A stretch of 44,263 bases of DNA from a phage, in assembly GCA_029038705.1 (NCBI GenBank), contig GCA_029038705.1_4346.1, one strand, 5' to 3'. Positions 13,709 to 28,817 of the stretch are shown here, in pieces; positions within the stretch are counted from its first letter, which is position 1, and every line of letters starts with the position of its first letter. The position numbers and the translations under genes were made by a program. The notes below the pieces were generated by a model. That model had not been told where the DNA came from, did no database searches, and worked only from the letters and a program-made list of their open reading frames with translations.

Positions 13709-13829
13709 ACTGATTATCGCGTTACTGGCGGGATTCGCCGCCGGTGTCTACTGTCACGAGGGCCAATACGGAATGATGGTTGCCATATTGGGAATGTTCA
13801 TCGCAATTTATCTATGGGTGCTGGAATGA
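13698..13829 (+). CDS. Hypothetical small membrane protein
   Basis: 43 aa, almost entirely hydrophobic; overlaps the polymerase stop. Confidence 0.3.
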   Translation: MLSKLIIALLAGFAAGVYCHEGQYGMMVAILGMFIAIYLWVLE

Positions 13830-13915
13830 AAATCTACTGGTTCTATGAAGAAGACTGTCGAATCTGTCCGCGCTGCGGGATTGAGCACACGAAACGTGAG
13901 GGGTGCGTATTATGA
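13826..13915 (+). CDS. Hypothetical tiny Cys-rich protein
   Basis: 29 aa (MKIYWFYEEDCRICPRCGIEHTKREGCVL); ATGA-coupled. Confidence 0.25.
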   Translation: MKIYWFYEEDCRICPRCGIEHTKREGCVL

Positions 13916-14409
13916 AAGCACCAAGTGACGATATAAAAGATTTTCTGTCATACGACCCGGATACCGGGATATTTAAATGGGTCAAGCACAGATGCCAGAC
14001 CGCGAAACCCGGAGATGTTGTTACATACAAGGACCGTAAAGGGTACATATTGTTAGGATGGAGTAGGGTGTATTACCGCGCACACAGGCTGGCGTGGTGG
14101 TGGGTGTACGGAGAGATGCCAACTAAGCAAATAGACCATATTAACGGCATACGGGACGATAACCGGATTTGTAACCTACGGCTTGCGGATGAATTTCAAC
14201 AGAACCATAACCGCAAGACCCCAGTTACGAACACCAGCGGCGTGAAAGGGGTTAACTGGAGTAAGCCTCATAATGCTTGGTGTGCTCGAGTTGCTTTTAA
14301 AGGTACACGCTATCAGATTGGGTATTTCCAGAACCTAAATGAAGCAGAGGAATCCCTGAGAGAATTTAGGGTAAAACTGCACGGAGAGTTTTGCAACCAT
14401 GGCGACTAA
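13912..14409 (+). CDS. HNH homing endonuclease with AP2-like DNA-binding domain
   Basis: HRLAWWWVYGEMP...IDHINGIRDDNRICNLRL...NHN is the HNH motif; SGVKGVNWSKPHNAWCARVAFKGTRYQIGYF is AP2-like. Track start 13903 is GTG; ATG at 13912 has GAGGGG upstream. Confidence 0.8.
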   Translation: MKAPSDDIKDFLSYDPDTGIFKWVKHRCQTAKPGDVVTYKDRKGYILLGWSRVYYRAHRLAWWWVYGEMPTKQIDHINGIRDDNRICNLRLADEFQQNHNRKTPVTNTSGVKGVNWSKPHNAWCARVAFKGTRYQIGYFQNLNEAEESLREFRVKLHGEFCNHGD

Positions 14410-14686
14410 AGAGGGCCGCGTACAGAAATACGCAAAAGAGCAATTCGAGGCCATTGGCGGCCTCGTTCGTAAACTTTCGTACGAGGGGCGCTCCGGCGCC
14501 CCTGACCTGCTGGTAATTCTCCCCGGCGGCATCGTCTGGTTCGTCGAGGTGAAGAAAGACGAAAGCACGAAGCCTGACCCACACCAGTTACGAGAGCATG
14601 AGCGGATGCGTAAACGTGGTGCGAATGTTTTTGTCGTCGGGTCGTTCAAACAGGTTGACGACCTAATAGCGAACTATTATAGTTAG
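14399..14686 (+). CDS. VRR-NUC domain nuclease (PD-(D/E)XK)
   Basis: 95 aa; GAPDLLVILPGGIVWFVEVKKD matches the D-x(n)-E-x-K core. Confidence 0.7.
   Translation: MATKEGRVQKYAKEQFEAIGGLVRKLSYEGRSGAPDLLVILPGGIVWFVEVKKDESTKPDPHQLREHERMRKRGANVFVVGSFKQVDDLIANYYS
14655..14683 (+). promoter_or_regulatory. Sigma70-like promoter (TTGACG-N17-TATAGT) with AATAG-N4-CTATT palindrome, inside the 3' end of the VRR-NUC gene
   Basis: TTGACGACCTAATAGCGAACTATTATAGT. Confidence 0.55.
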
Positions 14687-14716
14687 CCCTACACCAACAA
14701 TATAAGGAATTGATAG

Positions 14717-14908
14717 ATGAAATACGAATATGACCGTAAACCAGCACGTGACATCGTACCTGGCGACATGATTTTCAACGTTAAGACCCGCCAGCCTGTT
14801 GCCGTTGATACGGTGTTCGTCGAGTCAAACGGTAAACTGGTTATCGAAGATGTAACAGGCAATGTTACAGCGTTCGGGCGTAAAGAGTTAGTTCTGGTGG
14901 CAAAATGA
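14717..14908 (+). CDS. Hypothetical protein
   Basis: 63 aa ORF with AAGGAA RBS. Confidence 0.5.
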   Translation: MKYEYDRKPARDIVPGDMIFNVKTRQPVAVDTVFVESNGKLVIEDVTGNVTAFGRKELVLVAK

Positions 14909-16329
14909 GTAAGTTTCAAAGGCGCGAATATCAGAAGCTCATGACTTCGTTCATGCTACAGCATCCGCGCTGTAATATCTGGTGCGGCATGGGAGGGGGC
15001 AAAACCTCCTCAACTATGTGGGTGCTTAATCGCCTGTTTCGCAACGGGCAGCTTACAGAAGATGACCGCGTGTTAATCCTCGCCCCGTTGCGTGTTGCAT
15101 CCGGTACGTGGCCCGCTGAACAAGAGAAATGGAACTTCCCCTGTCTGCGTGTCGTAGATGCTACCGGTTCAGAGAAGCGCCGCATCGCGGCGCTGGAGTC
15201 CGACGCTAACGTGGTGTGCACTAACTACGAAGTTATTGAGTGGCTGATTGACTACTATGGCAAAGATGACTGGCCTTTTACTGTTATCGTTGCCGATGAA
15301 AGCACGAAGCTTAAATCGTTTCGCAGCCGTTCTGGCGGCAGCAAGCGAGCAAAGGCGCTTAGTAAAGTGGCATTTGGCAAAGTTAAGCGTTTCATTAACC
15401 TGACTGGCACGCCGTCACCAAACGGCCTCAAGGACTTGTGGGGGCAGAACTGGTTTATCGACGCTGGCGAGCGACTCGGTTCATCGTACACAGCATTCAC
15501 CGACCGCTGGTTTAACTCGGTACAGAAAGGTAAATCGGCTATGGCGCGTGAATATCATGCGCGACCGGGTGCAGATAATGAGATTCATCAGAAGATGAAA
15601 GACATCAGCCTGACCATAGACCCTGCCGAGTGGTTTGGTTGTGAAGCGCCTGTTATCGTACCGGTGGAAATAGACCTGCCGAAGAAAGCGCGTCAGGCGT
15701 ACATAGATATGGAGGAGAAGTTATTCGCAGAACTGGAGAGCGGGGAAGTTGAAGCGGCTAACGCTGCGGCGAAGACCTCAAAGTGCTTGCAGATTGCATC
15801 TGGTGCTGTATATGTATCCGGGCCAGACGGCGAAGCAACCAAAGAATGGGAGAAAGTGCACGACACGAAACTGGATGCGCTGGCGTCCATTGTCGAGGAG
15901 TTACAGGGTGCGCCGTTACTGGTAGCCTATCAGTTCAAGCACGAACTGGAGCGCGTCCTTAAGCGATTCCCACAAGCACAGGCCTTTGCCAAAGGCGCCA
16001 GGGGTAATAAGCAGATGGAAGCATGGAACCGCGGGGAAATAGAGATTTTGTGCGTCCACCCTGCGTCCGCCGGGCATGGTTTGAATTTACAGGACGGGGG
16101 TCATCATCTGGCGTTCATCTCGCAAGGCTGGAACCTTGAGCACTATTTGCAGGTTGTTGAGCGCATAGGCCCAGTCCGCCAGAAACAGGCGGGTCACGAG
16201 CGCCCGGTGTTCCTTTATCACATCGTTGCTAAAGACACTCTGGACGAGGTTGTCGCCGCGCGTACCGACGAGAAGAAATCGGTACAGGAAGAGTTGCTTA
16301 ATTACATGAAGAGACGAGGTAAGAAATGA
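14905..16329 (+). CDS. SNF2-family DNA helicase/translocase
   Basis: 474 aa; Walker A-like GMGGGKT, DEXH-like VIVADESTKLK, C-terminal helicase domain. Confidence 0.8.
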   Translation: MSKFQRREYQKLMTSFMLQHPRCNIWCGMGGGKTSSTMWVLNRLFRNGQLTEDDRVLILAPLRVASGTWPAEQEKWNFPCLRVVDATGSEKRRIAALESDANVVCTNYEVIEWLIDYYGKDDWPFTVIVADESTKLKSFRSRSGGSKRAKALSKVAFGKVKRFINLTGTPSPNGLKDLWGQNWFIDAGERLGSSYTAFTDRWFNSVQKGKSAMAREYHARPGADNEIHQKMKDISLTIDPAEWFGCEAPVIVPVEIDLPKKARQAYIDMEEKLFAELESGEVEAANAAAKTSKCLQIASGAVYVSGPDGEATKEWEKVHDTKLDALASIVEELQGAPLLVAYQFKHELERVLKRFPQAQAFAKGARGNKQMEAWNRGEIEILCVHPASAGHGLNLQDGGHHLAFISQGWNLEHYLQVVERIGPVRQKQAGHERPVFLYHIVAKDTLDEVVAARTDEKKSVQEELLNYMKRRGKK

Positions 16330-16841
16330 TGGATTTCGAAGAGTTTCTACTTAAAGCTCATCTGCTGGCGCGTGGGTTTGACGCTGACCGTCTCCAGGTA
16401 GTCTTAGCCCCTGGAGTAGCTACGTTTTACCTGTGGGGGTTTGACGGTAGGCTTCGCGGATACCAGCATTACAAACCACATGCCGAAAAGAACTGTAAAA
16501 ACCCTAAAGACGCGCGGTACTTTACCAGAACAACAAGGCCGTGTTTATGGGGGCTTGAGTATTTGCCGGAAAGCGGGGTGGTATTTGTTACCGAAAGCAT
16601 ATTCAAAGCCGTAGCCTTGATGAATTGCGGGTTCAATGCTGTAAGCGCACTGGGGTCAAATATATCAACAGACCTACGGCAGCAAATGTCACTTTTGCCG
16701 TATGACTGGGTGTGCGCTGGCGACAATGATAAAGCTGGATTAAAGTTCAGCAAAACATTCACCAGAGGATTTGTATCTAACGACCTTGATGAACTTTGTG
16801 AAGAAGAAATAACGTATCTTGCGAGGAAATTTACCAGATGA
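16326..16841 (+). CDS. Toprim-domain protein (DnaG-type primase catalytic core-like)
   Basis: 171 aa; VVFVTESIFKAV...VCAGDNDKAG matches the Toprim E...DxD pattern. Confidence 0.6.
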   Translation: MMDFEEFLLKAHLLARGFDADRLQVVLAPGVATFYLWGFDGRLRGYQHYKPHAEKNCKNPKDARYFTRTTRPCLWGLEYLPESGVVFVTESIFKAVALMNCGFNAVSALGSNISTDLRQQMSLLPYDWVCAGDNDKAGLKFSKTFTRGFVSNDLDELCEEEITYLARKFTR

Positions 16842-16975
16842 ACATCATAGCCCCGATTCCAGCATTGCAAAAACGTATCAAGGAACTCGAAGAAGAGGTT
16901 CTACGACTACGGCAACAAAGAGACGCCGCTAATGCGCAACTGGCGTTTGTACTGGAGAAGTTATCAGAAGAGTAG
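16838..16975 (+). CDS. Hypothetical small coiled-coil protein
   Basis: 45 aa; ATGA-coupled to the Toprim gene. Confidence 0.3.
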   Translation: MNIIAPIPALQKRIKELEEEVLRLRQQRDAANAQLAFVLEKLSEE

Positions 16976-17008
16976 AGAAAAGGCCCCGTTTGGGGCCTTA
17001 GTTTTTAG
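16976..17008. terminator. Bidirectional terminator between the replication and tail modules
   Basis: AAGGCCCC-GTTT-GGGGCCTT, flanked by T-rich sequence on both strands. Confidence 0.6.
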
Positions 17009-18957
17009 AGTATGCGTATTTCCCCGCCGTGTATGGCGACAGGAGTAGCCAAATAAGGACTTTTTACCACAACGAAGCCATTTTCGTTGCTCACCACCGG
17101 CGGCTTCGATACATCGGATGTAGAAAGCGCCACCGCGGTCCTACCGGCTACATGCCCGAGCCAAAACCATGTCCCCAAGTTATGGTCTATTTTAAGGGCG
17201 AGGAACAGTAATTGGGTATCTGAGTATTGAATCTGTGTTGTCCATTTTGCTCGGGTGTCTGAGCCAGAAATCTCTGTAGAGACGCTCGCGCCAACTGTGT
17301 ACCCTGCGGAGCTACCATTGCTCATCTTCCCGTTAACAAGCTGCGGGTGGTATTTACTGGTCTGCTTGGCTTTCCCTACAACTGAACTAAGTCCTAAATC
17401 CGGGTGGTAGAAGACTATAGTCTGGTCTACTGTGCTGGCCTCTTTAGCGGATGCAGCGGGTAGTGTTGTACCGCCGGGTTTTATATCTGTTTGCCAGTGA
17501 ATGTCAGAAAGGTTGTACGGCGACCCTTCGTTAAGGTTCCACCAAACGGCCCCTCCCCCAATACGGTTATTAGGAAGAATACGCACGTTAGTATTATCGT
17601 CAAATGCGCCAAACATTTTCATACTACTGCCGTAAATCCAACAGTTATCCATAGTGATATTATTGGCGCTCGTTGCTATGACGCCATATACACCACTTTC
17701 GTCTGACTCTATGTAGCATGAATCAAACTTGATGTTATATGCTCCTGCAATCCAAACGCCATGGGTACGAAAACTTTCAATGCCGCAGTTGAACAGCGTA
17801 AGAGCTTCAACAGCCCCTTCGAACTTAATGCCGACATCACACTTGCCTGTATGAACTGATACTAATGGCTGAATGTTACATTCATCGGTAAAGTGGTAAC
17901 GGTGCAAGCCGTTAGTGTATGTACCGTTACACTGTAGGTTCCTGAACATGGAGTAAAAACAGCGCTGAGTGTAAATCAACTGCTGGACGTTTACACCAAC
18001 AATATCTGTAACTTCGCAGCCAAATACATGGTCCCGCAGACGAAAGCCTTGATAGAAATTAATCAGTGTAGCATTGCGAATTGTTGTCCCTATAGTTAGA
18101 TACTCTTCACCAGATTTTCCAAAAACCGAAGAGATAGTGCCAGTAGAAGTTATATAGCCAGTCTCAATGAACACGTTAGTTGTGTCAGAAGTGTCGTCAC
18201 GCCCTACGATACGAGCGCCCTGAAAATCGATCACTTGCATCCTACGCTTAGGGAAATTAGTTGCTTCAATGCCAGATGGAGATTCTGAAGCCAACACATA
18301 AACTTTACCGGCGATGTAGTAGCTTTTCCACGGAGTAGCAACAACTTTAACACCACCCGCGCGCCACGCGGCGACTATAGCCGCCTGAAACGCCGATGTG
18401 TCGTCATGGCGACTAGGGTTTGGGCTTCCGTTTACCAGGTAGGCGTCACCGTATGCGCCAAAATCATCAACGTTAATCTCCTGTTTGAGTTTATCCATTA
18501 CGGTGAGTGAAACCGAATCGGAATACCCAGAATTGAATCCCACCAAAGATGCGCCGGATAGATCTGCTAGCTCATTGCGCAAATCCGGGTCAGTCTGCGG
18601 CTTCCAGTTAGCGTTACCAACCGGGTTAAACGATGCGGGGACAACAACCGGCAGAGTCCCGGTATACGAGTACCACGTCTTGCTTACAGGGGCATACACC
18701 ACTTTGTCTCGGTCATTAACTGTTAATGTCCCGCCTGTAGAAAAGTCCCACGACACGGGAGAAAATCCCGCGCCACGCAACACGGCGGGTAACGTCTTCT
18801 GTGTCTGTCCGGTAACCTGATTTGTTGCATAATCAATATCAGCACCAGTAGCAACACCGCCGGATTTGCCGGTGATAACCTCGGCTTCAAAAATTTGGTG
18901 TTTCTTGGCGGTCTGTAAATCCACCAGGCTTAAAACGTCACCGCATCCGCTTGACAT
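17005..18957 (-). CDS. Tailspike / tail fibre with right-handed beta-helix (pectate-lyase-like) domain; candidate depolymerase
   Basis: 650 aa, last gene of the tail operon; DDTSAFQAAIVAAW resembles the pectate-lyase-family motif; repetitive Gly/Asn/Thr-rich beta-strand segments. Confidence 0.7.
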   Translation of the reverse strand: MSSGCGDVLSLVDLQTAKKHQIFEAEVITGKSGGVATGADIDYATNQVTGQTQKTLPAVLRGAGFSPVSWDFSTGGTLTVNDRDKVVYAPVSKTWYSYTGTLPVVVPASFNPVGNANWKPQTDPDLRNELADLSGASLVGFNSGYSDSVSLTVMDKLKQEINVDDFGAYGDAYLVNGSPNPSRHDDTSAFQAAIVAAWRAGGVKVVATPWKSYYIAGKVYVLASESPSGIEATNFPKRRMQVIDFQGARIVGRDDTSDTTNVFIETGYITSTGTISSVFGKSGEEYLTIGTTIRNATLINFYQGFRLRDHVFGCEVTDIVGVNVQQLIYTQRCFYSMFRNLQCNGTYTNGLHRYHFTDECNIQPLVSVHTGKCDVGIKFEGAVEALTLFNCGIESFRTHGVWIAGAYNIKFDSCYIESDESGVYGVIATSANNITMDNCWIYGSSMKMFGAFDDNTNVRILPNNRIGGGAVWWNLNEGSPYNLSDIHWQTDIKPGGTTLPAASAKEASTVDQTIVFYHPDLGLSSVVGKAKQTSKYHPQLVNGKMSNGSSAGYTVGASVSTEISGSDTRAKWTTQIQYSDTQLLFLALKIDHNLGTWFWLGHVAGRTAVALSTSDVSKPPVVSNENGFVVVKSPYLATPVAIHGGEIRIL

Positions 18958-18969
18958 ATAGAGTCCTCT

Positions 18970-21525
18970 TTAATTAAAACCATTGCTGAATCCGTCGGAG
19001 AAACCGCTGCCGTATGGCGCGACGCCGTCGTATTTATAGAATCCGTCGTCATAGTTGTAGCCTGTAATCTTGACCGTGCGGTCGTCGCCGGGGTCGATTG
19101 AAGAAACAACTATCTTCTGAGCATTATGCCTTGCTTCGTTGCCGAATGAAAACTCAGTTTTTAGTGCGCTATTCCCCGTGTAGATTGCTTCTTCCGGCGC
19201 GGAGAGCATAATCACTTCGCGGTCGTGGCTTCCTTTGATAACGGAGATACTCTGTACAGAGCCATCGCGCTTCTTGAGGATGATGGAGTGGTCATCACCC
19301 GGAGTAAACGCAACCGGCTGTGACAGTGTCAGCGTAAGCCCATTAACGGCAGCAACATAGCCGTCCTGTGGCGCAATACGCGAGCCTTTAACTACGCTGA
19401 TTACACCGCCTGGGGTAGCGAGCGCACCTTCTTCGGTAGCTTCAAACTCTACGACAACTTTACTTAACGCATTGCGCTGGTAGCGACGCCACGCCAGCCA
19501 GTACGCTTGCTGATAGTTGCGCACGCCCTTCGATTCGTATTCCTCGGTGTTTGCCCCTAGTTCTTCCGGGATATAAATAGTTTCCTGTACGTTCGTATCC
19601 GGGTCGATGTATGAGAACGACAGGCTATCGTAGGTTGTCGAATCGTTGAACGTGCGGGTCCATTTCTCAGTACCGGTAGTTTTGCTGCGGTGGGTGAACA
19701 CCATTTCAGGCCCCGCGACAGGACGGTCGAATCGCAGCATAATATCCGCACCTTTACGGTACGCAGTACAGAAAACGGCTTCCGCTATGGTCTGGACGAT
19801 GTCCTGCATGGTTGTGTCATAGTCGTCGAACGTGTAGCAGAATTGCCCTGCTAATTCACTTCCGAAATAGGACTCAATTTCTTCCTGCACAGCAAGTAAC
19901 TTGTCCATGTTTGCCGTTGTCAGTTCCAGATTGCCTACTGCGGGGTCGCGCGCCAGTCGAATTAGAGATTGTACGGCTTGCGTGTTCGGTGTCATTACTG
20001 TATCGAATACCCCATTGCCGAGGTATTTGTAGCACATCTCGGTCGCAATCATGCGCAGTTCAGGGTTATCGATACTGGCGGCCCGCGGCGTCTGTTTACG
20101 GGCGCAATGTACGGTAGTTCGGTTGCCGTAGTGTGGAGTGGTGTCCAGAGACTGCCCATACAGGTTAATGAATGTTATCTCGTCGCTTACCGTTCCGGCA
20201 TAGTCCTTATCAAAATTCGTTATACGGCGCATACGGGCGCGGAAACGAGACGCGGTCGGCAACTGCCCGTAGATAGACGTACCAACGTAATCCGTGCTAT
20301 TACCAGTAATCGTAGCCTGTACCGTGTAAATATCGCTCAACGGGTTACGCTGAGAGTCAATCATCTGGTACTGGAGTTCCACCGTTACGCTGGTGCGGTT
20401 ATAGCCGCCGTCGTATTTGTAGATGCCGTTCTGCCCGGCAACGTTCGCAAGCACCCGGTCAACTTCTCCGCGCACCATGTAATACCAGTCTGTCAGGGAT
20501 ACGTCATAGGTGTCGCTCGGGCCGATAAACGTATCTGAACGCTCTGTTAGGGCGTACGTCTGCCCGCTGGTCAACGCCGCCCAGTTAGACGCACCGTTTA
20601 CCGCTAATCTTACTTCGAAGTCATCAACGTATAAAACCTCAAACGAGCCGTTCAGGTTAGTGACATCAGCAACGTCAAAGTTGCTCAGCACCGCGACATC
20701 ACCGGCGCTAAGAAACTCAGAAAAAGCAGAGTCGCCCGACGGGTCATAGATGTAGCCGGTGGTCGAAGTACGTTTGGCGGTTCCACCGGAGCTTGGGTTA
20801 GCCCCAATGTCGTTTGGCGCTTTGAGCACAATACCGTCAACGTCGTCATTGGAGTACGTCACATAGAGCTTCTGATCAATGACGTCGCCGATTTGTACCT
20901 GCGGCGATGTGGTGTTGTTCGGTGACGTATACGGCGCGTACACGGCAACAGAGGAACCTGTGATGTCGCTTATCAGGGTGTCGCCTTCCGTGACGCCATC
21001 GGCCTCAATATACAGATGTCCGCGCCCGGCGTCGTAGTACGAATACTCCAGCAAAGCACCAGTGGAGTTGAACGCTTTATACGTCTGCATAAGGTCGTTA
21101 GGGATTGTCTGCACAGTCCCGCAGATGTCATAAGAGCGCTCGTAAGGGCGTGGTTTGTTTGAGCGGTCCGTGAGGCTGTTATTTGGCGATGTTGTCTGGT
21201 TGTTAGTCGCCGTATAGTTGGCGTTTGCGGACATGTTCAGGCCAAACAACTTAGCGATTGGCTTAAGGATAAAACCAAATACCTTACTAACTGCACCAAG
21301 CGCCCCGCTACCCGCACCCTCAATAATATGGTACACGGCGTCTTCGTCTTTAAGCGCTTCGAAGTCGTCTGTAACATCAGTATCATCGCCAATCTCGCCG
21401 AGGTAGACGCGCACAGGCACACCGTCCGGAATACGGCTAACAACAAACTCCATCGGCATCCCGACGTGTTTTGTACGGTCGAAAGCGCCATCAGCGTTTC
21501 GCGAGTAGTGCAGGATTATCGCCAA
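18970..21525 (-). CDS. Tail tip / central tail fibre protein (host-specificity J-like)
   Basis: 851 aa; position distal to tape measure and minor tail genes. Function assigned by size and position. Confidence 0.6.
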   Translation of the reverse strand: MAIILHYSRNADGAFDRTKHVGMPMEFVVSRIPDGVPVRVYLGEIGDDTDVTDDFEALKDEDAVYHIIEGAGSGALGAVSKVFGFILKPIAKLFGLNMSANANYTATNNQTTSPNNSLTDRSNKPRPYERSYDICGTVQTIPNDLMQTYKAFNSTGALLEYSYYDAGRGHLYIEADGVTEGDTLISDITGSSVAVYAPYTSPNNTTSPQVQIGDVIDQKLYVTYSNDDVDGIVLKAPNDIGANPSSGGTAKRTSTTGYIYDPSGDSAFSEFLSAGDVAVLSNFDVADVTNLNGSFEVLYVDDFEVRLAVNGASNWAALTSGQTYALTERSDTFIGPSDTYDVSLTDWYYMVRGEVDRVLANVAGQNGIYKYDGGYNRTSVTVELQYQMIDSQRNPLSDIYTVQATITGNSTDYVGTSIYGQLPTASRFRARMRRITNFDKDYAGTVSDEITFINLYGQSLDTTPHYGNRTTVHCARKQTPRAASIDNPELRMIATEMCYKYLGNGVFDTVMTPNTQAVQSLIRLARDPAVGNLELTTANMDKLLAVQEEIESYFGSELAGQFCYTFDDYDTTMQDIVQTIAEAVFCTAYRKGADIMLRFDRPVAGPEMVFTHRSKTTGTEKWTRTFNDSTTYDSLSFSYIDPDTNVQETIYIPEELGANTEEYESKGVRNYQQAYWLAWRRYQRNALSKVVVEFEATEEGALATPGGVISVVKGSRIAPQDGYVAAVNGLTLTLSQPVAFTPGDDHSIILKKRDGSVQSISVIKGSHDREVIMLSAPEEAIYTGNSALKTEFSFGNEARHNAQKIVVSSIDPGDDRTVKITGYNYDDGFYKYDGVAPYGSGFSDGFSNGFN

Positions 21526-21881
21526 AATTCAATCTCCGTGTACGTGTCTCTGAGGTCCGCCAGCCTGTCAAGCCGTACCTGGCGGGATGCAAGCTCGCAA
21601 TGACTCACCATCCCGTCGAAGTAAACTCCCGCATGCCACACGATACGACCCCCGCGGCGATAACCCATAAGCACCGCGCAGAAGTTTTCAGGCTTATCAA
21701 TTTTTGTAAGCCCCTTCGTGTCACGGCGGCCTTCGTCAAACGCTTCGTTAATTGCCGTTGGGCTTGTAACGTCGAACGCAGGGGTTTCTAACCCGGCATC
21801 CGCGCGGACAATGCGCACGTGATGCCAGCAATTGCGTTTGCGAAAGTCGTAAGGTATGCCCGTGTAGTCGTTAATATTCAT
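21516..21881 (-). CDS. Tail assembly protein, possible NlpC/P60-type (gpK-like)
   Basis: 121 aa with candidate Cys/His residues (NCWHHV, WHAGVY); positioned as lambda K. Confidence 0.4.
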   Translation of the reverse strand: MNINDYTGIPYDFRKRNCWHHVRIVRADAGLETPAFDVTSPTAINEAFDEGRRDTKGLTKIDKPENFCAVLMGYRRGGRIVWHAGVYFDGMVSHCELASRQVRLDRLADLRDTYTEIEFWR

Positions 21882-22393
21882 GTGGTCAACAGGCCGCGTA
21901 ATAACGGTATCTCTTTAGGTGTCATCAGTATACCAGTGCTTCGTTGGTTCAGCATAGGTGTACCGACATCTGCGGAAAACTCGCCTTTCTCCTGATTGAT
22001 GGCCTGTAACTCGTACATGACAGGGCCGTCCGCAGGATAAGACAGGTCGGTGCCGACGTAACGGCGGAATACAAACTTCGGCAACTCGGTGTTACTCATC
22101 GGGATTTTATCCATCTCATCATCAAGTTGATTGAGAATATCCGGTAGTGTAAACGTCGTCGTCTGGTCCATATCGCTGTTGTTAGCGGCCCCGGACGCCT
22201 CCATCGGGGTGGGTTCGAATGTGATAGTTTCGCCGGTTTCCAGTGTCGCCGTAAGTTCCTGTAGCCCACGAACAAGATAGTACGTCTTTGACAACAACGG
22301 GTGGCTGATTTGCAACGTGATGTAGTCTATCTCGCCGTCGGGATTTGATGCCAACTTACGGCGATAGGCAGCTTCTACTGATTCCTGACTCAT
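21878..22393 (-). CDS. Minor tail protein
   Basis: 171 aa; between the distal tail protein and K-like gene. Confidence 0.45.
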   Translation of the reverse strand: MSQESVEAAYRRKLASNPDGEIDYITLQISHPLLSKTYYLVRGLQELTATLETGETITFEPTPMEASGAANNSDMDQTTTFTLPDILNQLDDEMDKIPMSNTELPKFVFRRYVGTDLSYPADGPVMYELQAINQEKGEFSADVGTPMLNQRSTGILMTPKEIPLLRGLLTT

Positions 22394-22396
22394 AAG

Positions 22397-23797
22397 TTAG
22401 CCGTCCACATTAAAATCAATACGAGTGATATATTTACTACCCCACGCAGAATCGGCCTGAGGGATAGTCGCGTAATCATCTACAGCCTGAACGTTTATCA
22501 CGGAGCCGTCGGAATAGGTGATGTCGATACTTGTCGCGCCGTTCATTACTACTTTTGCCGATGGCGCTGGGCGTGTTACAGGAGACGCCGACGTAATTAT
22601 TGGTGATGTTGTATTTTGGTTTACCTCTACAGTAGCCGCGGATAATTTAATCCCTGAAACGCCATCCCCCGTAAAGGCTCCGGTAACTCCGTCTGAATAT
22701 ATCCATGCGTCCATCCGTATGCTCATTGTTTTATCTTCTGTCGCGGTGATCGTCTCCGATATTCGGAACCACCCTCCGCCTACGTCGGTTACATCTGTAC
22801 CGCCTGGGCCGGAATAAATGCTACCATCCCGCAAATCAACAACTGCCGAGCCTAATACTGTAGGAAGTTCTCGCACGTACATCCGTATGAAATTGTATCC
22901 GTTTGCTTTTGCGAAGAAACTAAAAGTAACCATGTCGCCAACACCAACGCTAACATCTACAGTCTGGTTTATTAGGTGGTTACCGCTTGCGGCGGTAGCA
23001 GTTACGTCGTACGTGCCAGCGGCTGTTAAAACACCTGTTTCAGATACTGATACACTCACCAAACCTTTGTTCCAGTTTGACGAAGAGAAATTGCTTGAAT
23101 ATAGGAATCTGTTAGTTACTGATACCTCTGGTGGCACGCGCCCGGCGGCAACCCCGTCAATAAACGTAAGAGGCCATTCATTGGCGGCGGACTGTACAAG
23201 ATTACCATTGCGGTTGATGTAATAAACCTGTGGCCCCTCATACACAATGCGGCTATCAAGAGTCGACGCCAGAAGGTTAATCGGCGGATACCCGGCGGGG
23301 CCTTCATTGCTCCAGATGCGAGGGAACGTCGTCTCATAGTTCGCGTATATTTTCAGGAAACTACCCAGACAATCCCCGTAACAGCCGTACAAATCCGGAA
23401 GATTGTTAATCAGGCACTGGTTCTCAAGGTCCTGGAACGGCGATTTCTCGGCGGTTGCTGTGAAGGTAATTGTCCAGTTAATCCCGTCTTCGGTGGACTC
23501 GGCGATAGTGGACGTAATGGTTACCTGATAATCTTCGATGCCCATGCCGAAGTCGTGCGCCATCCAGAAACTTGACGCACCGCCGTCTACTTTTTCGAGG
23601 AACGACAGAAACGCCTGTCGCCCCATTGCGGATGTAATCAGGGTTACGCTCACCGGGAACACGTCGTAATACGTGTCGCGCCCCTGACGTACACCGCCAC
23701 CAGCTAAATCAACGCTCCAGACGTTGTTACGTCTGGTCATCGAGTAGCCTTTCGATACAATTGGCTTAAGGCTACGTGGGAAATATAAGTCGCTCAT
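22397..23797 (-). CDS. Minor/distal tail protein with C-terminal extension
   Basis: 466 aa immediately downstream of the tape measure protein. Confidence 0.5.
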   Translation of the reverse strand: MSDLYFPRSLKPIVSKGYSMTRRNNVWSVDLAGGGVRQGRDTYYDVFPVSVTLITSAMGRQAFLSFLEKVDGGASSFWMAHDFGMGIEDYQVTITSTIAESTEDGINWTITFTATAEKSPFQDLENQCLINNLPDLYGCYGDCLGSFLKIYANYETTFPRIWSNEGPAGYPPINLLASTLDSRIVYEGPQVYYINRNGNLVQSAANEWPLTFIDGVAAGRVPPEVSVTNRFLYSSNFSSSNWNKGLVSVSVSETGVLTAAGTYDVTATAASGNHLINQTVDVSVGVGDMVTFSFFAKANGYNFIRMYVRELPTVLGSAVVDLRDGSIYSGPGGTDVTDVGGGWFRISETITATEDKTMSIRMDAWIYSDGVTGAFTGDGVSGIKLSAATVEVNQNTTSPIITSASPVTRPAPSAKVVMNGATSIDITYSDGSVINVQAVDDYATIPQADSAWGSKYITRIDFNVDG

Positions 23798-25815
23798 TAT
23801 TTGAACCCCGGCGCGTTTCTTGTGGCCTTGCGAGCCTTGCTAATCTTACTGTTGCTGTTCTGCAAAGACGCGGCAACCTGTTCTTCAATGATGATACGCA
23901 AACGGCCCTCATCATCTTGCTCAGTGGATACGTTGCCGATTTGAGAACTCGTGTTGTTTACGATAGTAACATTAGATGGGCCACTATTTCCGCTATTATT
24001 ACCGTTTAACTGCTGCCGTGTTTGACTTGCATTGGTCGCCCTGCCAGAACCCGCCATCTTGATAATCTCAGGGCCGCGTTCACCAACCAGGTAACTACCG
24101 CCAGCGTTCATTTGCCCGCCTTGCTCACGCGCGCCGCTAATCTTGGCGATGTTCGCCACCCCCGCCGCGACAGCCAGACCCGCGGCAACCGGAGCGAGTG
24201 CCGGGCCGACAATTGGAATAGCAGCAGTTGATTTATAGGCTTCGATAGCAGCCGTGTAAGTGGCAATAGTCGCTTGCGTTATGGCGAACGCTTTGTACGC
24301 AGCGGACGTCTCCCCCAGTGCGGATTTAGCATCCGCTGCCATGCTGCCGAATGCGTCGGCGGTGGCGTTGGCTTGTGCAATATTGCTCTGTTCGTTCAGG
24401 TTACGCACTGCATTAGCGTATTCTTCTTCGCTGATTAGTTTCTGTTTAAGGAAATCGTCCAGTTGCTTAAGTTTGGCGTCATTCTGCCGTTGGATTTCCT
24501 CGAACTCTGTGCCACCAAGCGCCTGTAGTTTCTCCAGATATGCATCAGCATTGTTATACAGCGCATCTCGTTGTGCCTGAAACTCCGCCATGATGTCACT
24601 TTTCGACTTCTCGTAGTCAGCGTCGCTTACGAGTTGCTTGTCGTGGAACTCCTGCAATTTAGCCAGTTTCTGTTTCTCTTTGGCGTCTATCCGTTCTAAC
24701 TCTGTTCCGGTGTTTGTGTCTATTTGAGCTATAAACTGGTCTGCGGCTTTCTGTGCGCTTTCCTGCGCGCGAGCGTCGGCGCGGGCTTGAGCATCTGCTC
24801 GTTTCTTAGCTGCGGCAGCGATACGATTCTGCCTGTCTATTTCCTTCTGTGCCCTGTCCGCCTTATCCTTTTCATACGTCTTCTCAGATTGCTCTACCCC
24901 TTTTCGCTCGGCTGCGCGGGTCTTTTCCTCCACACCAAGGTAGTTAAGTTCATTTCGCAGTTTATTTATTTCCATCTGCGCTTCTGGCGTTTTGGCGTTT
25001 ATGCCGTCCAGGTAGGCGACCAGCCCTTCTCGAGCTCCAGGAACCCCAGCTGCGATTGCTTTCTGAGCAACTTCAATACTGCGTAACTCTTTGGCGGTCA
25101 ACCCCGCCGCTTCCGCAGCGGATTCGTACTGGAAAGCCACGGCCCCGGCAGCGTCCCCGCCTTGGGCTATCTGTGATGCGGCAAGGTTGGTGGTCAACTT
25201 CTGAAACAGAGATTGGGCTTTTGTTACCTTATCAATAGCTTCAACAATCTTATCTGCGGTGGAGTTAGCCTGTATGGCGGTTGCCTCTAGTGCCTTATTA
25301 AGAAATGCCATCTTCTCCGCTGTTGTTGCCCCGACAGCGTCCAGTTTTTCCAGTGCGTCATTCATGTCATACACACCGGGTGTGGCCTCATTAAGAGCGT
25401 CATCAAGGAACTTAGTAGCTTCCTCCAGTTGTTTAGCGGTATCCGTTGAGTTACTCAAAGACGCGTACAGCGCGCCGCCGATTACGGTGGCGATAGTCAA
25501 TACCGTGCCCGCAATTGGATTGAATGCGGACACTAACTGACTACCTTGTTGCGTGAAAGCCGTGAGGGCGGACTGCCCCCCTTGGATTTGTACGATAAAG
25601 TCCTGTACCTGATACCCAGCATTACCTATTGACGCCCGCATCGCGTTCATCTTCGGGGTTGCCGCGGAGGTGGTGTCCGTTAGTTTCTTTGTGCTGGAAT
25701 CCGCTTTCCCAGCGGAACTACTAAGGTTATCTAACTGCTTTGCTGCTTGCTCCGCTCCAGTTGCCTGGACTCGCACCATTAAACTCGCGGTATCAGCCAT
25801 TATAATCGTCCTCAT
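23797..25815 (-). CDS. Tail tape measure protein
   Basis: 672 aa; long Ala/Gln/Lys/Glu-rich coiled-coil core, C-terminal hydrophobic/Gly-rich segment (IVGPALAPVAAGLAVAAG...GERGPE). Confidence 0.8.
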   Translation of the reverse strand: MRTIIMADTASLMVRVQATGAEQAAKQLDNLSSSAGKADSSTKKLTDTTSAATPKMNAMRASIGNAGYQVQDFIVQIQGGQSALTAFTQQGSQLVSAFNPIAGTVLTIATVIGGALYASLSNSTDTAKQLEEATKFLDDALNEATPGVYDMNDALEKLDAVGATTAEKMAFLNKALEATAIQANSTADKIVEAIDKVTKAQSLFQKLTTNLAASQIAQGGDAAGAVAFQYESAAEAAGLTAKELRSIEVAQKAIAAGVPGAREGLVAYLDGINAKTPEAQMEINKLRNELNYLGVEEKTRAAERKGVEQSEKTYEKDKADRAQKEIDRQNRIAAAAKKRADAQARADARAQESAQKAADQFIAQIDTNTGTELERIDAKEKQKLAKLQEFHDKQLVSDADYEKSKSDIMAEFQAQRDALYNNADAYLEKLQALGGTEFEEIQRQNDAKLKQLDDFLKQKLISEEEYANAVRNLNEQSNIAQANATADAFGSMAADAKSALGETSAAYKAFAITQATIATYTAAIEAYKSTAAIPIVGPALAPVAAGLAVAAGVANIAKISGAREQGGQMNAGGSYLVGERGPEIIKMAGSGRATNASQTRQQLNGNNSGNSGPSNVTIVNNTSSQIGNVSTEQDDEGRLRIIIEEQVAASLQNSNSKISKARKATRNAPGFK

Positions 25816-26062
25816 TACGGCCTTCGAACAGTGCGTCTAGGCCCATTATTAAGTCTACCTCAAGCAACGAGAACGGCTGTTTATGCAACTCTGCGTACGC
25901 TGTAAGGTGGTGATATTGGAGCATTTCCCTTGGTATTAGCACATTATTGCGGCTTACAAACTTCAATGCGTAGTATTTATCCATTATTTTCATCATATCG
26001 CTCGGGCATTCCGGCGGGGTTTCCTCAGGCTCCTTCGGTACAGGTAACCCCATAGCCGCCAT
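25793..26062 (-). CDS. Tail assembly chaperone, T-like downstream ORF
   Basis: 89 aa between the G-like chaperone and the tape measure. Its frame is open about 39 codons upstream of the ATG and is -1 relative to the preceding ORF. Confidence 0.4.
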   Translation of the reverse strand: MAAMGLPVPKEPEETPPECPSDMMKIMDKYYALKFVSRNNVLIPREMLQYHHLTAYAELHKQPFSLLEVDLIMGLDALFEGRNEDDYNG

Positions 26063-26151
26063 AGCGGCCTTGTGCCCGTCGGCGATGGAGTCGAACTCAC
26101 GTCTCCTTTGCCGTATAACCCAGCGATACCTCGCATATTCGTAAAGCGCTT

Positions 26152-26568
26152 CTACTTTACAGATAAAGCTTTGCGGCTCTCAGCATGGTGTTGAGCGACA
26201 GCCCCTCCCAACCCTTTATACTCCTTCAACAGCTTGACCAACGCTTTCTTAGTGAACTTCTCCTCGAAGGACCACCCTACAACAACAACGGCAGCAAGTG
26301 CATCGTTAAGTTTAGCCAATTCACTGTTTAATTCCGTGTTATAGCGCGCCCAGTCCCCTTTCTCGCGGCACTCCGCGTCGAGCGGTTTCAGGCGGTCAAG
26401 GATGTCGCGGTAAGCGGAGATAAAATCCTTAGCTGCGGCGATTGAGTCGTCGCAGTCAGGCCCCATCACCTGCAACCACTCCCCTGAGTCACTGCCGTCC
26501 GGTAGCAGGATAGGCATCTTAGTTCCCGCAGCGTGGCGGGACGCGAAATAAAAATCAGAAAGTTTCAT
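26152..26568 (-). CDS. Tail assembly chaperone (gpG-like)
   Basis: 138 aa, acidic; canonical position between the major tail and tape measure genes. Confidence 0.5.
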   Translation of the reverse strand: MKLSDFYFASRHAAGTKMPILLPDGSDSGEWLQVMGPDCDDSIAAAKDFISAYRDILDRLKPLDAECREKGDWARYNTELNSELAKLNDALAAVVVVGWSFEEKFTKKALVKLLKEYKGLGGAVAQHHAESRKALSVK

Positions 26569-26677
26569 TCTTTAATCCTTTGGTTAAGAGGTTGTTGGTT
26601 AAAGAGAAATGCACCAGGCGGTAACCAACCGCTTTTCGTGCGCGACACTAGGTGCAAAATTATTCTAACACACTACT

Positions 26678-26706
26678 TGCACACCCCAATATAATAGGGT
26701 ACTATT
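26678..26706 (+). promoter_or_regulatory. Sigma70-like promoter (TTGCAC-N17-TACTAT) with AATAG-N4-CTATT element, driving the plus-strand cassette
   Basis: TTGCACACCCCAATATAATAGGGTACTAT; same architecture as the minus-strand early promoters at 2431 and 4040. Confidence 0.55.
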
Positions 26707-26745
26707 CACTTACACCAACGTTATTAACTTAAATAAGGAATTAAA

Positions 26746-27072
26746 ATGCGTAAATTAATCATAGCCATGGGTCTTATTTCTTTTTGCGCGGTAGGGTCCC
26801 AGTGTGAGCAAGTATATAGTGAAACCCCTTTAGTAACTTCCGGGGTGCTTGATTCAGCCCCTCCGTCTGCCGTTAGTGCGTTTAAAACCGCTGCTATTCG
26901 CGAATGTAATGCTGCCGTGCGCGCTGGCGGGTCTGGCCTTGGTCTTGAATTGATGACATCCCTTGTTGTTGAGTCTGTAGATGTTAACAGCCCCACTTTC
27001 AGCAGCCTACTGTTAGCCACTCGTTTGCAAATGGTTACAACCGGATGGTCAATAGGCGCAGAAAGTAAATAG
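26746..27072 (+). CDS. Hypothetical small secreted protein (N-terminal signal peptide)
   Basis: 108 aa; MRKLIIAMGLISFCAVGSQC signal-like start (no canonical lipobox); AAGGAA RBS. The antisense ORF 26724..27020 is judged spurious. Confidence 0.45.
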   Translation: MRKLIIAMGLISFCAVGSQCEQVYSETPLVTSGVLDSAPPSAVSAFKTAAIRECNAAVRAGGSGLGLELMTSLVVESVDVNSPTFSSLLLATRLQMVTTGWSIGAESK

Positions 27073-27137
27073 TTGCCTTTATTTAAAGGAATGCACTGTG
27101 GTTAAATAGGACAAATCCTAAACACGAGGAAATAGGC

Positions 27138-28292
27138 ATGGCCCAGAAGAAAATAACCGACGAACAGTTACAGGAAGAATTGAACGCTGGGATGAAGAAT
27201 ATCGACATTGCTCGTAAATACGGCATCTCAGACCGCGTTATTCGTATCCGTAAAGCGAAACTAGCGAAGAAAGGCGTAGGCCACGGGCGTGACGTTAGCC
27301 ACCTTGTGCCGGACGGCTACAAGATTAAGGGTACATCGTCTCTGGTTGATGAGTTAGGCAACACTAAACTGCAATGGGTTAAGACCGACACCGATGCGGA
27401 ACGTCAGGTCGAGTTAATGAAAGCCGTTGTGGACGAGATGAAAAAAGATTTACCCAAGTATAAGCCAGTCACTTTGGCCAAAAATGGGACAGATGACGAC
27501 TTATTAAATCTTTACACAATAACAGACCATCACATAGGGATGTTGGCGTGTCAAGAAGAAGGCGGGGATGATTACGACACCACAATCGCGGAATCTCTCG
27601 CGGTTGACTGGTTCAACAGTGCGGTTTGTATGAGTCCACAGAGTGGTGAATGTATCATTAACTTCTTAGGGGACCAAATGCACTACGACGGCATGAAGGC
27701 AATGACCCCTATGAGCGGTCATATTCTTTCAGCGGATAGTCGCCTGTTTAAAATGATACGCACGGCCATTAAGGTTATCAAGCTGGCTGTCTCACTGTGC
27801 TTGCGAAAACACAAGAAGGTTAAACTTCTTATCTGTGAAGGTAACCACGACCTTAGTTCTTCTCTGTGGCTCCGGGAGATGTTCTACGAGGTATACACAA
27901 ATGAGCCTCGCGTCGAGGTTAACCGGGAGGTGTCACCGTATTATGCGTACAAGTTCGGGGATTGTATGATTTCAGCACATCACGGGCATTGTTCTAACTT
28001 TGCTAAGGTAGAGCAGGCTATAATCGGTAAGTACCGGGAGATGTACGGGCGGTGTAAGTTCACATATGTCCATACGGGGCACCTCCATCACAGGGCGGTT
28101 AAAGAGACTAATCTGCTAATTGTTGAGCAACACCAGACATTAGCGGCTAAAGATGAGTATTCTAGTAAGGGCGGCTATTATTCAGGTAGAAGCGCAAATG
28201 TGATTACATACCACAAACGTTACGGGGAGGTGTCCCGCATAAGTATACCTGTCGAAATGCTGCGAGACATAAACCCAAAATCGACATACTAA
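27138..28292 (+). CDS. HTH domain fused to a calcineurin-like metallophosphoesterase
   Basis: 384 aa. N-terminal NIDIARKYGISDRVIRIRKAKL (HTH-like). Phosphoesterase motifs in canonical order: TDHHIG, GDQMHYDG, EGNHD, HHGH, HTGHLHH. Confidence 0.65.
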   Translation: MAQKKITDEQLQEELNAGMKNIDIARKYGISDRVIRIRKAKLAKKGVGHGRDVSHLVPDGYKIKGTSSLVDELGNTKLQWVKTDTDAERQVELMKAVVDEMKKDLPKYKPVTLAKNGTDDDLLNLYTITDHHIGMLACQEEGGDDYDTTIAESLAVDWFNSAVCMSPQSGECIINFLGDQMHYDGMKAMTPMSGHILSADSRLFKMIRTAIKVIKLAVSLCLRKHKKVKLLICEGNHDLSSSLWLREMFYEVYTNEPRVEVNREVSPYYAYKFGDCMISAHHGHCSNFAKVEQAIIGKYREMYGRCKFTYVHTGHLHHRAVKETNLLIVEQHQTLAAKDEYSSKGGYYSGRSANVITYHKRYGEVSRISIPVEMLRDINPKSTY

Positions 28293-28307
28293 AATATAGG
28301 TGAAAGT

Positions 28308-28808
28308 ATGGATTGGAGTGAGGTTTTTAGCTACAAAAATGGCGTCCTATACTGGAAAGTCAAATCATGTCGCCGTAACGATGTGAATATAGGTGATGTG
28401 GCCGGGAGTTTGTGTAAAAACGGCTATTGGTATGTCATGTTTGGTAACCGTAAGTTTAAAAGGTCGAGGGTGGTGTATGAGATGTTCTCAGGTAAGATTC
28501 CAAAAGGATTTGTCATAGACCATACTAACCATGATACCTGTGACGACAGAATTGAAAACCTGTCATGCAAATCTAGAAGGGACAACATGGTTAACGTGAA
28601 AAGGCGCAAAGATAATACCTCTGGAGTTACGGGTGTGGCGCGGAAAGGAAAAACTAAGTGGAGAGCTTATGCCGTTGTCAACGGTAAGCAGATTAGTAAA
28701 ACATTTGACAGAATAGAGGACGCTTTCGCTGAAAGAATTTACATGTCTGTGGCTAATAGGTTTCACATAAATCATGGACTGACAACATTCAACAACGGTT
28801 ATAAATAG
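28308..28808 (+). CDS. HNH homing endonuclease with AP2-like domain (paralogue of 13912..14409)
   Basis: GFVIDHTNHDTCDDRIENL...(HNH) and SGVTGVARKGKTKWRAYAVVNGKQISKTF (AP2-like). Confidence 0.8.
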   Translation: MDWSEVFSYKNGVLYWKVKSCRRNDVNIGDVAGSLCKNGYWYVMFGNRKFKRSRVVYEMFSGKIPKGFVIDHTNHDTCDDRIENLSCKSRRDNMVNVKRRKDNTSGVTGVARKGKTKWRAYAVVNGKQISKTFDRIEDAFAERIYMSVANRFHINHGLTTFNNGYK

Positions 28809-28817
28809 GGTGTAGAG

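Follow-up and report, generated by a model that had tools for sequence, protein, structure and literature searches.

Introduction

HNH-AP2 proteins are a recognised family of homing endonucleases, and homing endonuclease genes (HEGs) mark recombination boundaries in phage genomes (PMC10448857, PMC2248197, PMC5714182). In PMC10448857 and PMC2248197, HNH(N)-AP2 homing endonucleases in phages, cyanobacteria and protists are attributed to Magnani et al. 2004. Examples include those of the Xanthomonas phages Xp10, OP1 and Xop411 and the 'IPA-HNH' of ICP1 (PMC10448857, PMC2248197). The T4-type endonucleases SegG, SegE and MobE, which are also intergenic and intron-less, cut at a distance and co-convert their flanks, according to PMC10448857. 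They are unlike the HNH-AP2 proteins described here in that Seg enzymes are of the GIY-YIG type and Mob enzymes fall into another HNH group. The HNH nicking endonuclease I-HmuI of Bacillus phage SPO1 (PDB 1u3e) is encoded in a group I intron and, according to the literature, binds DNA through a NUMOD/helix-turn-helix region. Hef-like homing endonucleases combine zinc-finger repeats with a Vsr-like PD-(D/E)XK core. To our knowledge, no HNH-AP2 enzyme target has been characterised in the Guernseyvirinae group.

The window (the whole stretch of DNA analysed) is the complete Kagunavirus-like genome of an E. coli phage, 44,263 nucleotides in length. It contains two genes of HNH_3 plus AP2 architecture, HNH1 and HNH2, and a third nuclease gene that is Hef-like (Table 1). 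HNH1 and HNH2 are distant relatives within one well-known family of selfish homing nuclease genes, and they are most probably independently acquired, freestanding HEGs that arrived by homing-driven transfer. This is a clear but ordinary case of a known phenomenon; the family, and its orthologues in relatives, were annotated beforehand, and nothing in the findings on HNH1 and HNH2 would surprise a specialist.

Table 1. Coordinates of the nuclease genes, their insertions and the adjoining features in the window.
Feature	Position	Strand	Basis or detail
Conserved 29-codon CxxC mini-ORF, left border of cargo hotspot	13826..13915	+	translation
HNH1 insertion	13906..14420		515 bp relative to HEG-less Kagunavirus JSSK01; site in JSSK01 is 27 bp
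HNH1, freestanding HNH_3 + AP2 endonuclease gene	13912..14409	+	165 aa
VRR-NUC nuclease gene	14399..14686	+	PHROG 93/5702; weak Pfam VRR_NUC match
Calcineurin-like phosphoesterase / DNA-repair exonuclease gene, chimeric	27138..28292	+	PHROG 704, E 1e-150
Jerseyvirus-like patch (phosphoesterase 3' part + HNH2) in Kagunavirus backbone	27426..28816		~1.4 kb; identity profiles
HNH2, freestanding HNH_3 + AP2 endonuclease gene	28308..28808	+	166 aa
PHROG 2452 gene, right border of HNH2 insertion, Kagunavirus-type from first codon	28818..29111	+
Hef-like insertion	37513..39038		1526 bp relative to JSSK01; between minor capsid (36468..37544, -) and portal (39027..40502, -) genes
Hef-like endonuclease gene, freestanding	37585..38997	+	Pfam, PHROG

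Protein architecture and family membership

The two HNH proteins score 46.7 and 58.2 bits against PF13392, for which the cut-off is 24.8. Their family profiles match I-HmuI with E-values of 3e-7 and 4e-9, and I-HmuI is the best match in both structure and profile over residues ~30-105. Both proteins have the beta-beta-alpha-metal fold and share with I-HmuI an N-terminal beta-hairpin DNA-binding region beside this core. Sequence identity to I-HmuI is ~19-20%, and the window proteins differ from it in being freestanding and in carrying an AP2 domain. In the alignment with I-HmuI, D74/H75/N87 correspond to the catalytic D-H pair and the HNN-motif Asn of the window proteins. HNH1 retains D75/H76/N88/N100 and HNH2 retains D71/H72/N84/N93/N96.

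The AP2 domain is less readily detected. Single-sequence searches with HNH1 or HNH2 return no PF00847 (AP2) match at E<=1, and single-sequence PDB searches return nothing useful; family profiles and structure models are needed to detect the fold and the AP2 similarity. With profiles, the region ~105-158 matches WRI1 (7wq5, E 9e-7 and 4e-5) and TEM1 (7et4, E 8e-4 and 1e-3). Many full-length homologues carry PF00847, and the region is modelled as a three-stranded sheet with one packed helix. The same two-domain architecture, claimed for both genes in the original prediction, is therefore borne out by family profiles and structure models. Both proteins are assigned to the HNH(N)-AP2 family, within His-Me finger group 2, with a predicted I-HmuI-like nuclease and a predicted AP2 DNA-binding domain, and both genes should be named HNH-AP2 homing endonucleases in annotation.

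The proteins resemble described family members in their N-terminal HNN-type His-Me finger (HRLAW, DH, DNR, NLR and N boxes), their lack of a Cys zinc site and their C-terminal AP2 domain. The genes resemble them in being freestanding, in occurring as several diverged copies at scattered locations in one genome, and in having degenerate copies in relatives. There is no difference in kind, although the Pfam AP2 model misses both window sequences and each clade has its own substitutions. HNH1 and its nearest relatives have Q97 at a position occupied by Asn in 65 of 70 family members (N97Q); its counterpart in the I-HmuI alignment is N96, a metal ligand. HNH2 and its clade have Ser (S53 in HNH2) instead of the HRL-box His, a residue that does not vary across the alignment of the HNH1 family, and NLS is found where NLR is expected (NLS and NLE are variants of the NLR box). 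These substitutions at conserved positions could alter the nuclease activity of either protein. Both proteins are predicted to be catalytically active and to act on empty sites. A literature search returned no cleavage or homing data for HNH1, HNH2 or their close relatives.

HNH1 and HNH2 are 29% identical. HNH1 is closer to HNH-AP2 genes of other phages, at other sites, than to HNH2; its identity to EM1_gp66 and the Shashou HNH gene is 44-52%. The term 'paralogous' used at the outset holds in the sense of membership in one family and fails in the sense of duplicates; the low pairwise similarity argues against duplication within the genome and for independent acquisition, and repeated acquisitions are what had been proposed. 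A recent within-genome duplication is rejected on the 29% identity and on the presence elsewhere of 93-99% identical orthologues of each gene. In tblastn searches of the window with six HNH-AP2 proteins of the subfamily as queries, no further HNH-AP2 copies or remnants were found.

The HNH1 site

Three segments of the window have no counterpart in the JSSK01 genome (the HNH1 insertion, the Jerseyvirus-like patch and the Hef-like insertion), and the three nuclease genes are thus insertions relative to HEG-less genomes. The HNH1 insertion has clean borders, with the mini-ORF on the left and the VRR-NUC gene on the right. Identity to JSSK01 is 100% over the upstream flank (13400-13905) and resumes at 14421, at 90.6%. 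The stop codon of the mini-ORF overlaps the HNH1 start (ATGA), and the last 11 nt of HNH1 are the first 11 nt of VRR-NUC (ATGGCGACTAA). The left-border junction GGGGTGCRTATTATGA is also found in EM1 and XY1, which have other cargo at this position. Across relatives, the DNA polymerase/VRR-NUC junction falls into at least eight size classes and contains many alternative cargos, and the HNH1 site is a cargo hotspot located between these two genes. For the global alignment with SETP3, only the central part (12900-14900) was used, since the alignment is unreliable outside it (short locus with intein).

The MATKEGRV start allele of VRR-NUC is present in all five HNH1-containing genomes examined. 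The first eight codons (MATKEGRV versus MSTPEGKI) were considered as a cleavage-immunity allele specific to HNH1 carriers, and this was dropped after a sample of 17 genomes. In that sample, the HEG-less K1ind2, BCH953P1 and Bas73 have the HNH1-linked start sequence minus one codon, and VSe101 and Ent2 carry its CGCGT core. Strict linkage to HNH1 is confined to the 11-nt stop/start overlap. No extended co-conversion tract is visible at HNH1; the linked stretch is at most ~25 nt and its allele is not exclusive to carriers.

The HNH2 site and the chimeric phosphoesterase gene

HNH2 immediately follows the phosphoesterase gene and forms the right end of a patch of Jerseyvirus-type DNA. The phosphoesterase gene is Kagunavirus-type over its 5' ~95 codons and Jerseyvirus-type over the remaining three quarters, and it should be flagged as a chimera in annotation. 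An informative-site scan places the switch from Kagunavirus-type to Jerseyvirus-type at ~27300-27425. The patch is 89-98% identical to Salmonella phage KE04, versus 58-74% in its flanks; those flanks are 90-100% identical to BUCT789. In the window and in BUCT823, the right end of the Jerseyvirus-type tract lies no more than 10 nt from the stop codon of HNH2. The breakpoints are the same in the window, BUCT823 and XY1, which points to one ancestral event and not repeated ones. HNH2 is accompanied by a donor-type tract of ~0.9 kb on one side only. The cassette around the phosphoesterase gene is variable as well, with Ant, sie-like and other genes.

Empty HNH2 sites are compact. In Salmonella phage MET_P1_001_43, the site consists of TAA, 15 nt and ATG; in BUCT789 and JSSK01, the stop overlaps the next start.

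In the window, HNH1 and HNH2 both lie inside operons and are translationally coupled to their neighbours. No sigma-70-like promoter was found on the + strand upstream of either gene, where matches do not exceed the shuffle expectation.

Distribution and selection in relatives

HNH1 DNA is found in 61 of the ~430-470 related records, at full length in 55 (about 12%), and HNH2 DNA in 162, at full length in 115 (about 26%). In relatives, each gene is always at the same junction. The Guernseyvirinae orthologues (SETP3 gp37, SEP1_gp22, EM1_gp62, KE04 CDS0072 and others) are 93-99% identical in amino acid sequence and are annotated as HNH or homing endonucleases. HNH1 and HNH2 occur together in several Salmonella Jerseyviruses (Kenya-K series, KE04). 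Among the records listed, no E. coli Kagunavirus combines HNH1, HNH2 and the Hef-like gene. The flanks indicate insertion and not ancestry; in HEG-less relatives the flanking genes are intact and directly abut one another.

Both genes are more similar between genera than their surroundings. HNH1 is 94% identical to its counterparts in Salmonella Jerseyviruses, compared with 78-84% identity in the flanks, and HNH2 is 97% identical across genera versus 58-74% for the tail tube flank. The dS is 0.18 for HNH1 and 0.12 for HNH2, compared with 0.51 for VRR-NUC and 0.50 for the phosphoesterase. The dN/dS of 0.03-0.16 indicates purifying selection on both genes. GC content is 0.47 in HNH1 and 0.41 in HNH2, against 0.52-0.54 in their neighbours.

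Horizontal acquisition of both HNH genes is supported by their patchy distribution, the excess similarity across genera, the purifying selection and low GC, and the existence of filled, empty and deleted sites. These patterns support separate acquisitions of HNH1 and HNH2 from related phages. The third nuclease is of another type. Repeated acquisition of three freestanding nuclease genes, as originally suggested, agrees with all three being inserted relative to HEG-less relatives. As in other freestanding HEGs, each HNH gene has its own ORF among intact genes and outside any intron or intein, is sporadically present, shows evidence of horizontal spread and has degenerating copies.

It is very improbable that HNH1 and HNH2 were already present in the subfamily ancestor and disappeared repeatedly, for instance as genes with a terminase-associated role in packaging. 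Deletion remnants show that loss occurs, and about half of the Jerseyviruses carry HNH2. Against this, adjacent genes have a dS 3-4 times that of the HEGs in the same genome pairs, their GC is atypical, HNH2 of the window lies in a foreign-type patch, and genes missing from most relatives cannot be essential. A terminase-associated HNH was rejected as a candidate, since the HNH genes are 12-27 kb from the terminase (40515..42327) and absent from most relatives. The HNH_3 plus AP2 architecture is distinct from the small terminase-associated HNH type.

A domesticated function, either exclusion of competitors by DNA cutting (marker exclusion) or AP2-based regulation of transcription, is also improbable, if somewhat less so. 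It would agree with the purifying selection and with the operon embedding and translational coupling of both genes; moreover, transcription factors arose from AP2 domains, and DNA-binding domains of HEGs have been co-opted in conflicts between phages and satellites (PMC10448857). However, the genes are missing from most related phages and decayed in several, which makes them dispensable, and competitor exclusion is biochemically so close to homing that it is hardly a separate mechanism.

Decayed copies and the proposed mechanism of transfer

Decayed copies are found at both sites. Jersey_40 contains an internal-deletion remnant at the HNH1 site. In PhiSEP1, HNH2 is reduced to a remnant of 54 nt by a deletion between AACGG repeats. 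In XY1, HNH2 codons 1-60 are fused at the microhomology GAGATGTTC to the 3' end of a Kagunavirus-type phosphoesterase gene. Other HNH-AP2 lineages occupy the same sites, with Shashou and ZCEC5 at the HNH1 site and SCS92 at the HNH2 site.

Under homing-driven transfer, the enzyme would nick or cut the genome of a related phage lacking the gene, at the empty site or nearby, during mixed infection. Recombinational repair would follow, with the gene-carrying genome as template, and the recipient would gain the HEG along with more or less of its flanking DNA. HNH2 would in this way have entered the Kagunavirus sub-lineage that comprises the window, BUCT823 and XY1, and some 0.9 kb of phosphoesterase DNA of Jerseyvirus type would have come with it. 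Catalysis by the enzyme, a nick or double-strand break in its target sequences, and the endonuclease (in place of ordinary recombination) as the force behind the transfers are inferred from sequence comparison.

The main competing explanation is that HNH1 and HNH2 are passengers, moved by ordinary homologous recombination in hotspots and encoding nucleases that may be inactive or otherwise used. Both HNH sites are general cargo hotspots, so that ordinary recombination between conserved flanks could move the genes; the many cargos at the polymerase/VRR-NUC junction, the variable phosphoesterase cassette and the variable portal/minor capsid junction agree with this, as do the substituted conserved nuclease positions and the lack of a promoter for either gene. 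However, the strong purifying selection on both ORFs indicates that the protein is in use, and both proteins keep the D-H dyad of the active site as well as the invariant Asn residues. In addition, a homing-type nuclease is present at each of three unrelated junctions, different HNH-AP2 lineages are found time and again at precisely these sites, and the one-sided HNH2 tract is what a break to one side of the gene would produce. The passenger explanation is therefore considered unlikely, and homing-driven transfer is preferred.

Within homing-driven transfer, a more specific reading of HNH2 is put forward tentatively. HNH2 may cut within the SbcD-like phosphoesterase gene, at a point several hundred bp upstream of where HNH2 itself lies, so that repair brought the ~0.9-kb Salmonella-Jerseyvirus tract and HNH2 to an E. 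coli Kagunavirus; the GAGATGTTC fusion in XY1 would then be a scar of aberrant repair. The likeness to SegG, SegE and MobE lies in this putative one-sided tract, which runs from within the neighbouring gene to the endonuclease gene. If this is correct, homing across phage genera would imply co-infection of a shared host, and natural recombinants would locate the cleavage region without an experiment.

The weight of these observations is modest. Every stage of the homing endonuclease life cycle (empty, filled, internally deleted and fused) is represented at two sites among ~450 subfamily genomes, and a donor-type tract is seen to have passed from one genus to another. These observations agree with the published view of nuclease genes as borders of genetic exchange between phages. 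The sites also provide natural substrates on which HNH-AP2 enzyme targets could be mapped.

The Hef-like nuclease

The third gene, termed a zinc-ribbon nuclease in the original prediction, encodes three treble-clef zinc fingers, a Vsr/MTES_1575-like PD-(D/E)XK domain and a C-terminal domain; zinc-finger repeats and a Vsr-like core are shared with Hef-like homing endonucleases. It matches Pfam DUF4379 (E 8e-13), with weaker matches to MTES_1575 and Vsr, and PHROG 559/3339 (E 5e-98 and 2e-75). Translation probably begins at M22 (position 37648). In a search of 50,697 phage records, the DNA of the insert had no match and only its flanks were matched. The portal/minor capsid junction is variable across relatives. 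The best phage relatives of the protein are 44% identical in amino acid sequence and are annotated as 'Hef-like homing endonuclease'. In Jersey, the Hef-like copy lies between the terminase and portal genes, whereas the window copy lies between the portal and minor capsid genes.

Architecture and relatedness of the HNH-AP2 genes

Two paralogous HNH-AP2 endonuclease genes had been predicted in the window, and both ORFs, HNH1 and HNH2, are found at the predicted positions. Both score well beyond the Pfam HNH_3 threshold and are assigned to PHROG 99. The Pfam AP2 model hits neither of them as a single sequence, which made other tests necessary for the AP2 part of the prediction. Homologues were gathered, 793 of HNH1 and 47 of HNH2, and in many of them PF00847 and PF13392 together span the full length. 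In PDB searches with profiles of the alignments built from them (A2 and A3), both families match I-HmuI across the N-terminal ~100 residues and plant AP2/ERF domains (WRI1 and TEM1) over the last ~50 residues. The two families align profile to profile across 165 columns, at 25% identity (probability 100%, E 2.5e-62). On these matches and this alignment, the common two-domain architecture is real. The term "paralogous" holds in part. HNH1 and HNH2 belong to the same family, but with just 29% BLASTP identity over 99 residues they are distant members of it, and recent duplication is rejected. HNH1 is nearer to HNH-AP2 genes at other sites in the subfamily (EM1_gp66, 44%; Shashou HNH, 52%).

At the position aligned with I-HmuI N96, Asn is found in 65 of 70 family members, but in HNH1 and its nearest kin the residue is Gln. 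In the HNH2 clade, Ser replaces the HRL-box His, which is invariant in the HNH1 family, and NLS stands in place of NLR. A search for a dedicated promoter of HNH1 or HNH2 found none.

According to PMC2248197, PMC10448857 and PMC5714182, HNH(N)-AP2 homing endonucleases were described in 2004, and their genes occur in phages as multiple, scattered and degenerating copies. Homing endonucleases and inteins are already listed as mobile elements in papers on Jerseyvirus. An NCBI entry named "HNH endonuclease" is identical to the HNH1 protein, and GenBank has annotated orthologues of both genes from dozens of phages. The original prediction is correct, though ordinary, and already known in kind. The added value is modest: a clean natural series in which the site is filled, empty or decayed, and a cross-genus conversion patch.

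Features of the window and comparison loci (locus coordinates are locus-internal)
Feature	Coordinates	Remarks
HNH1	13912..14409 (+)	165 aa
HNH1 residues 96-100	14197..14211	Gln-for-Asn region
HNH2	28308..28808 (+)	166 aa
HNH2 residues 53-55	28464..28472	HRL-box region
Hef-like nuclease	37585..38997	strand opposite to surrounding head genes; in 1526-bp insertion 37513..39038, minor capsid / portal
Nuclease-bearing segments without JSSK01 counterpart	13906-14420; 27426-28816; 37513-39038	second is the Jerseyvirus-type patch
Shorter segments without JSSK01 counterpart	3421-3580; 23983-24112; 26720-27105; 29054-29217; 43149-43257
Tail-fibre swap against JSSK01	17006-18762	within ORF 17005..18957, - strand
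Tape measure parts and adjacent tail genes	22394..23350; 24318..26475	diverged from JSSK01 beyond blastn alignment
DNA polymerase/VRR-NUC junction	13500-14800
Helicase-side junction	14908/14910	between 14717..14908 and helicase 14905..16329
Hairpin	29221..29240	perfect, 8 bp, GC-rich
HNH2 site, filled		KE04
HNH2 site, empty		MET_P1_001_43; TAA + 15 nt + ATG
HNH2 site, 54-nt remnant	L012 ~1709-1762 (PhiSEP1)	PhiSEP1 and others; mini-ORF; deletion between two AACGG repeats
XY1 fusion ORF	L005 2603-3166	corresponds to window 28308-28487
Jersey_40 mini-ORF	L010 1806-1928
EM1 gp66, gp62, gp59	L001 780-1253, 3809-4306, 4802-5299

The HNH1 site

The window is collinear over all 44,263 bp with Escherichia phage JSSK01 (Kagunavirus, Guernseyvirinae), whose genome is circular; identity is 91-99% in most blocks. 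The polymerase-helicase and tail-cassette regions match ~430-470 records from Kagunavirus (E. coli) and Jerseyvirus (Salmonella).

The borders of the HNH1 insertion are sharp. Upstream of 13905, identity to JSSK01 is 100% for at least 500 bp; 515 bp then take the place of 27 bp in JSSK01, after which similarity returns at 90.6%. The start codon of HNH1 and the stop codon of a conserved CxxC mini-ORF overlap (ATGA), and the last 11 nt of HNH1 are the first 11 nt of VRR-NUC. A re-coded VRR-NUC start as an HNH1 immunity allele was considered and dropped after a sample of 17 genomes.

The distribution of HNH1 is patchy. It occupies the same position in EM1, KMB36, EP-M-A and EP-B-K_E2 (97-98% DNA identity) and in ~50 Salmonella Jerseyviruses (94%), whose flanks match the window at only 78-84% identity. 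In Shashou, Sciku and ZCEC5 this exact site holds an HNH-AP2 lineage 52% identical to HNH1, and in phage Jersey it holds Jersey_40, an internally deleted remnant. The Jersey_40 mini-ORF retains both termini of a Shashou-type HNH.

In a spread sample of relatives, the polymerase/VRR-NUC junction falls into at least eight length classes, from 718 to 1754 nt between the same flanks, and is therefore a general cargo hotspot. Small membrane-like ORFs are among the cargo here, as is an "endonuclease VII" gene in Bas73. In EM1, the replication module contains three HNH-AP2 genes within 5 kb, with 32-44% identity to each other or to HNH1; they show dense colonisation of the subfamily by this family.

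The HNH2 site

HNH2 lies 15 nt after the phosphoesterase stop and 9 nt before the next gene. By identity profiles and an informative-site scan, the segment that contains it is Jerseyvirus-type (89-98% identity to Salmonella phage KE04), whereas both flanks are Kagunavirus-type (85-100% identity to BUCT789). The tail tube is just 58-74% identical to that of KE04. These results make the phosphoesterase gene a chimera. The breakpoints recur in BUCT823, and XY1 matches the window at 100% identity across 27400-28400, so the patch is one ancestral import common to a Kagunavirus sub-lineage.

Among Jerseyviruses that share the same phosphoesterase allele, three states of the site, including a decayed one, are seen (see the table). 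In XY1, HNH2 codons 1-60 run in frame into the final 128 codons of a phosphoesterase of Kagunavirus type, fused at a 9-nt microhomology (GAGATGTTC). This ORF, labelled a phosphoesterase-domain protein in GenBank, resembles a scar left by aberrant recombination. In SCS92, the exact site contains a different HNH-AP2 gene.

Selection, divergence and movement

Purifying selection acts on both proteins, as Nei-Gojobori dN/dS is 0.07-0.16 for HNH1 and 0.03-0.06 for HNH2. When the window is compared with Jerseyvirus copies, dS is 0.18 for HNH1 and 0.12 for HNH2; the same pairs of genomes give 0.51 for VRR-NUC and 0.50 for the phosphoesterase. HNH1 and HNH2 are thus more similar across genera than their neighbours. 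GC content is 0.47 for HNH1, 0.41 for HNH2 and 0.48 for the Hef-like gene, compared with 0.50 for the genome and 0.52-0.55 for neighbouring genes. Together, the selection, dS and GC results reject ancestral, vertical inheritance of HNH1 and HNH2.

During mixed infection, the HNH enzymes would cleave or nick genomes lacking the homing endonuclease gene near the empty site, and recombinational repair would then copy the gene and flanking DNA into the recipient. Two features suggest that the break may lie inside the phosphoesterase gene: the 0.9-kb donor tract, which is one-sided and lies upstream of HNH2, and the XY1 fusion within that gene. Because both sites are general hotspots, HNH1 and HNH2 may instead have moved passively by ordinary recombination.

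The third nuclease and other differences from JSSK01

The third nuclease gene, which falls in PHROG 559/3339, encodes a protein with three treble-clef zinc fingers (DUF4379), a PD-(D/E)XK core similar to Vsr/MTES_1575, and a C-terminal domain. A DNA-level search of 50,697 phage records with the gene and its insert returned no match. The nearest phage proteins, annotated as Hef-like homing endonucleases, are merely 44% identical. Its homologues align from residue ~15-24, so its real start is probably M22 (37648). Phage Jersey has a Hef-like homologue at a junction other than minor capsid / portal.

The helicase-side junction has no cargo in the window. It is occupied by a C5-cytosine methyltransferase in JSSK01 and many relatives and by the HNH-AP2 gene gp59 in EM1. 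A helicase intein is present in SETP3 and Shashou and absent from the window. The hairpin, which is terminator-like on both strands, separates the + strand cassette of HNH2 from the tail tube gene on the - strand. JSSK01 lacks a counterpart of the distal tail fibre/tailspike region and carries a K1 endosialidase there; this swap points to a different receptor specificity.
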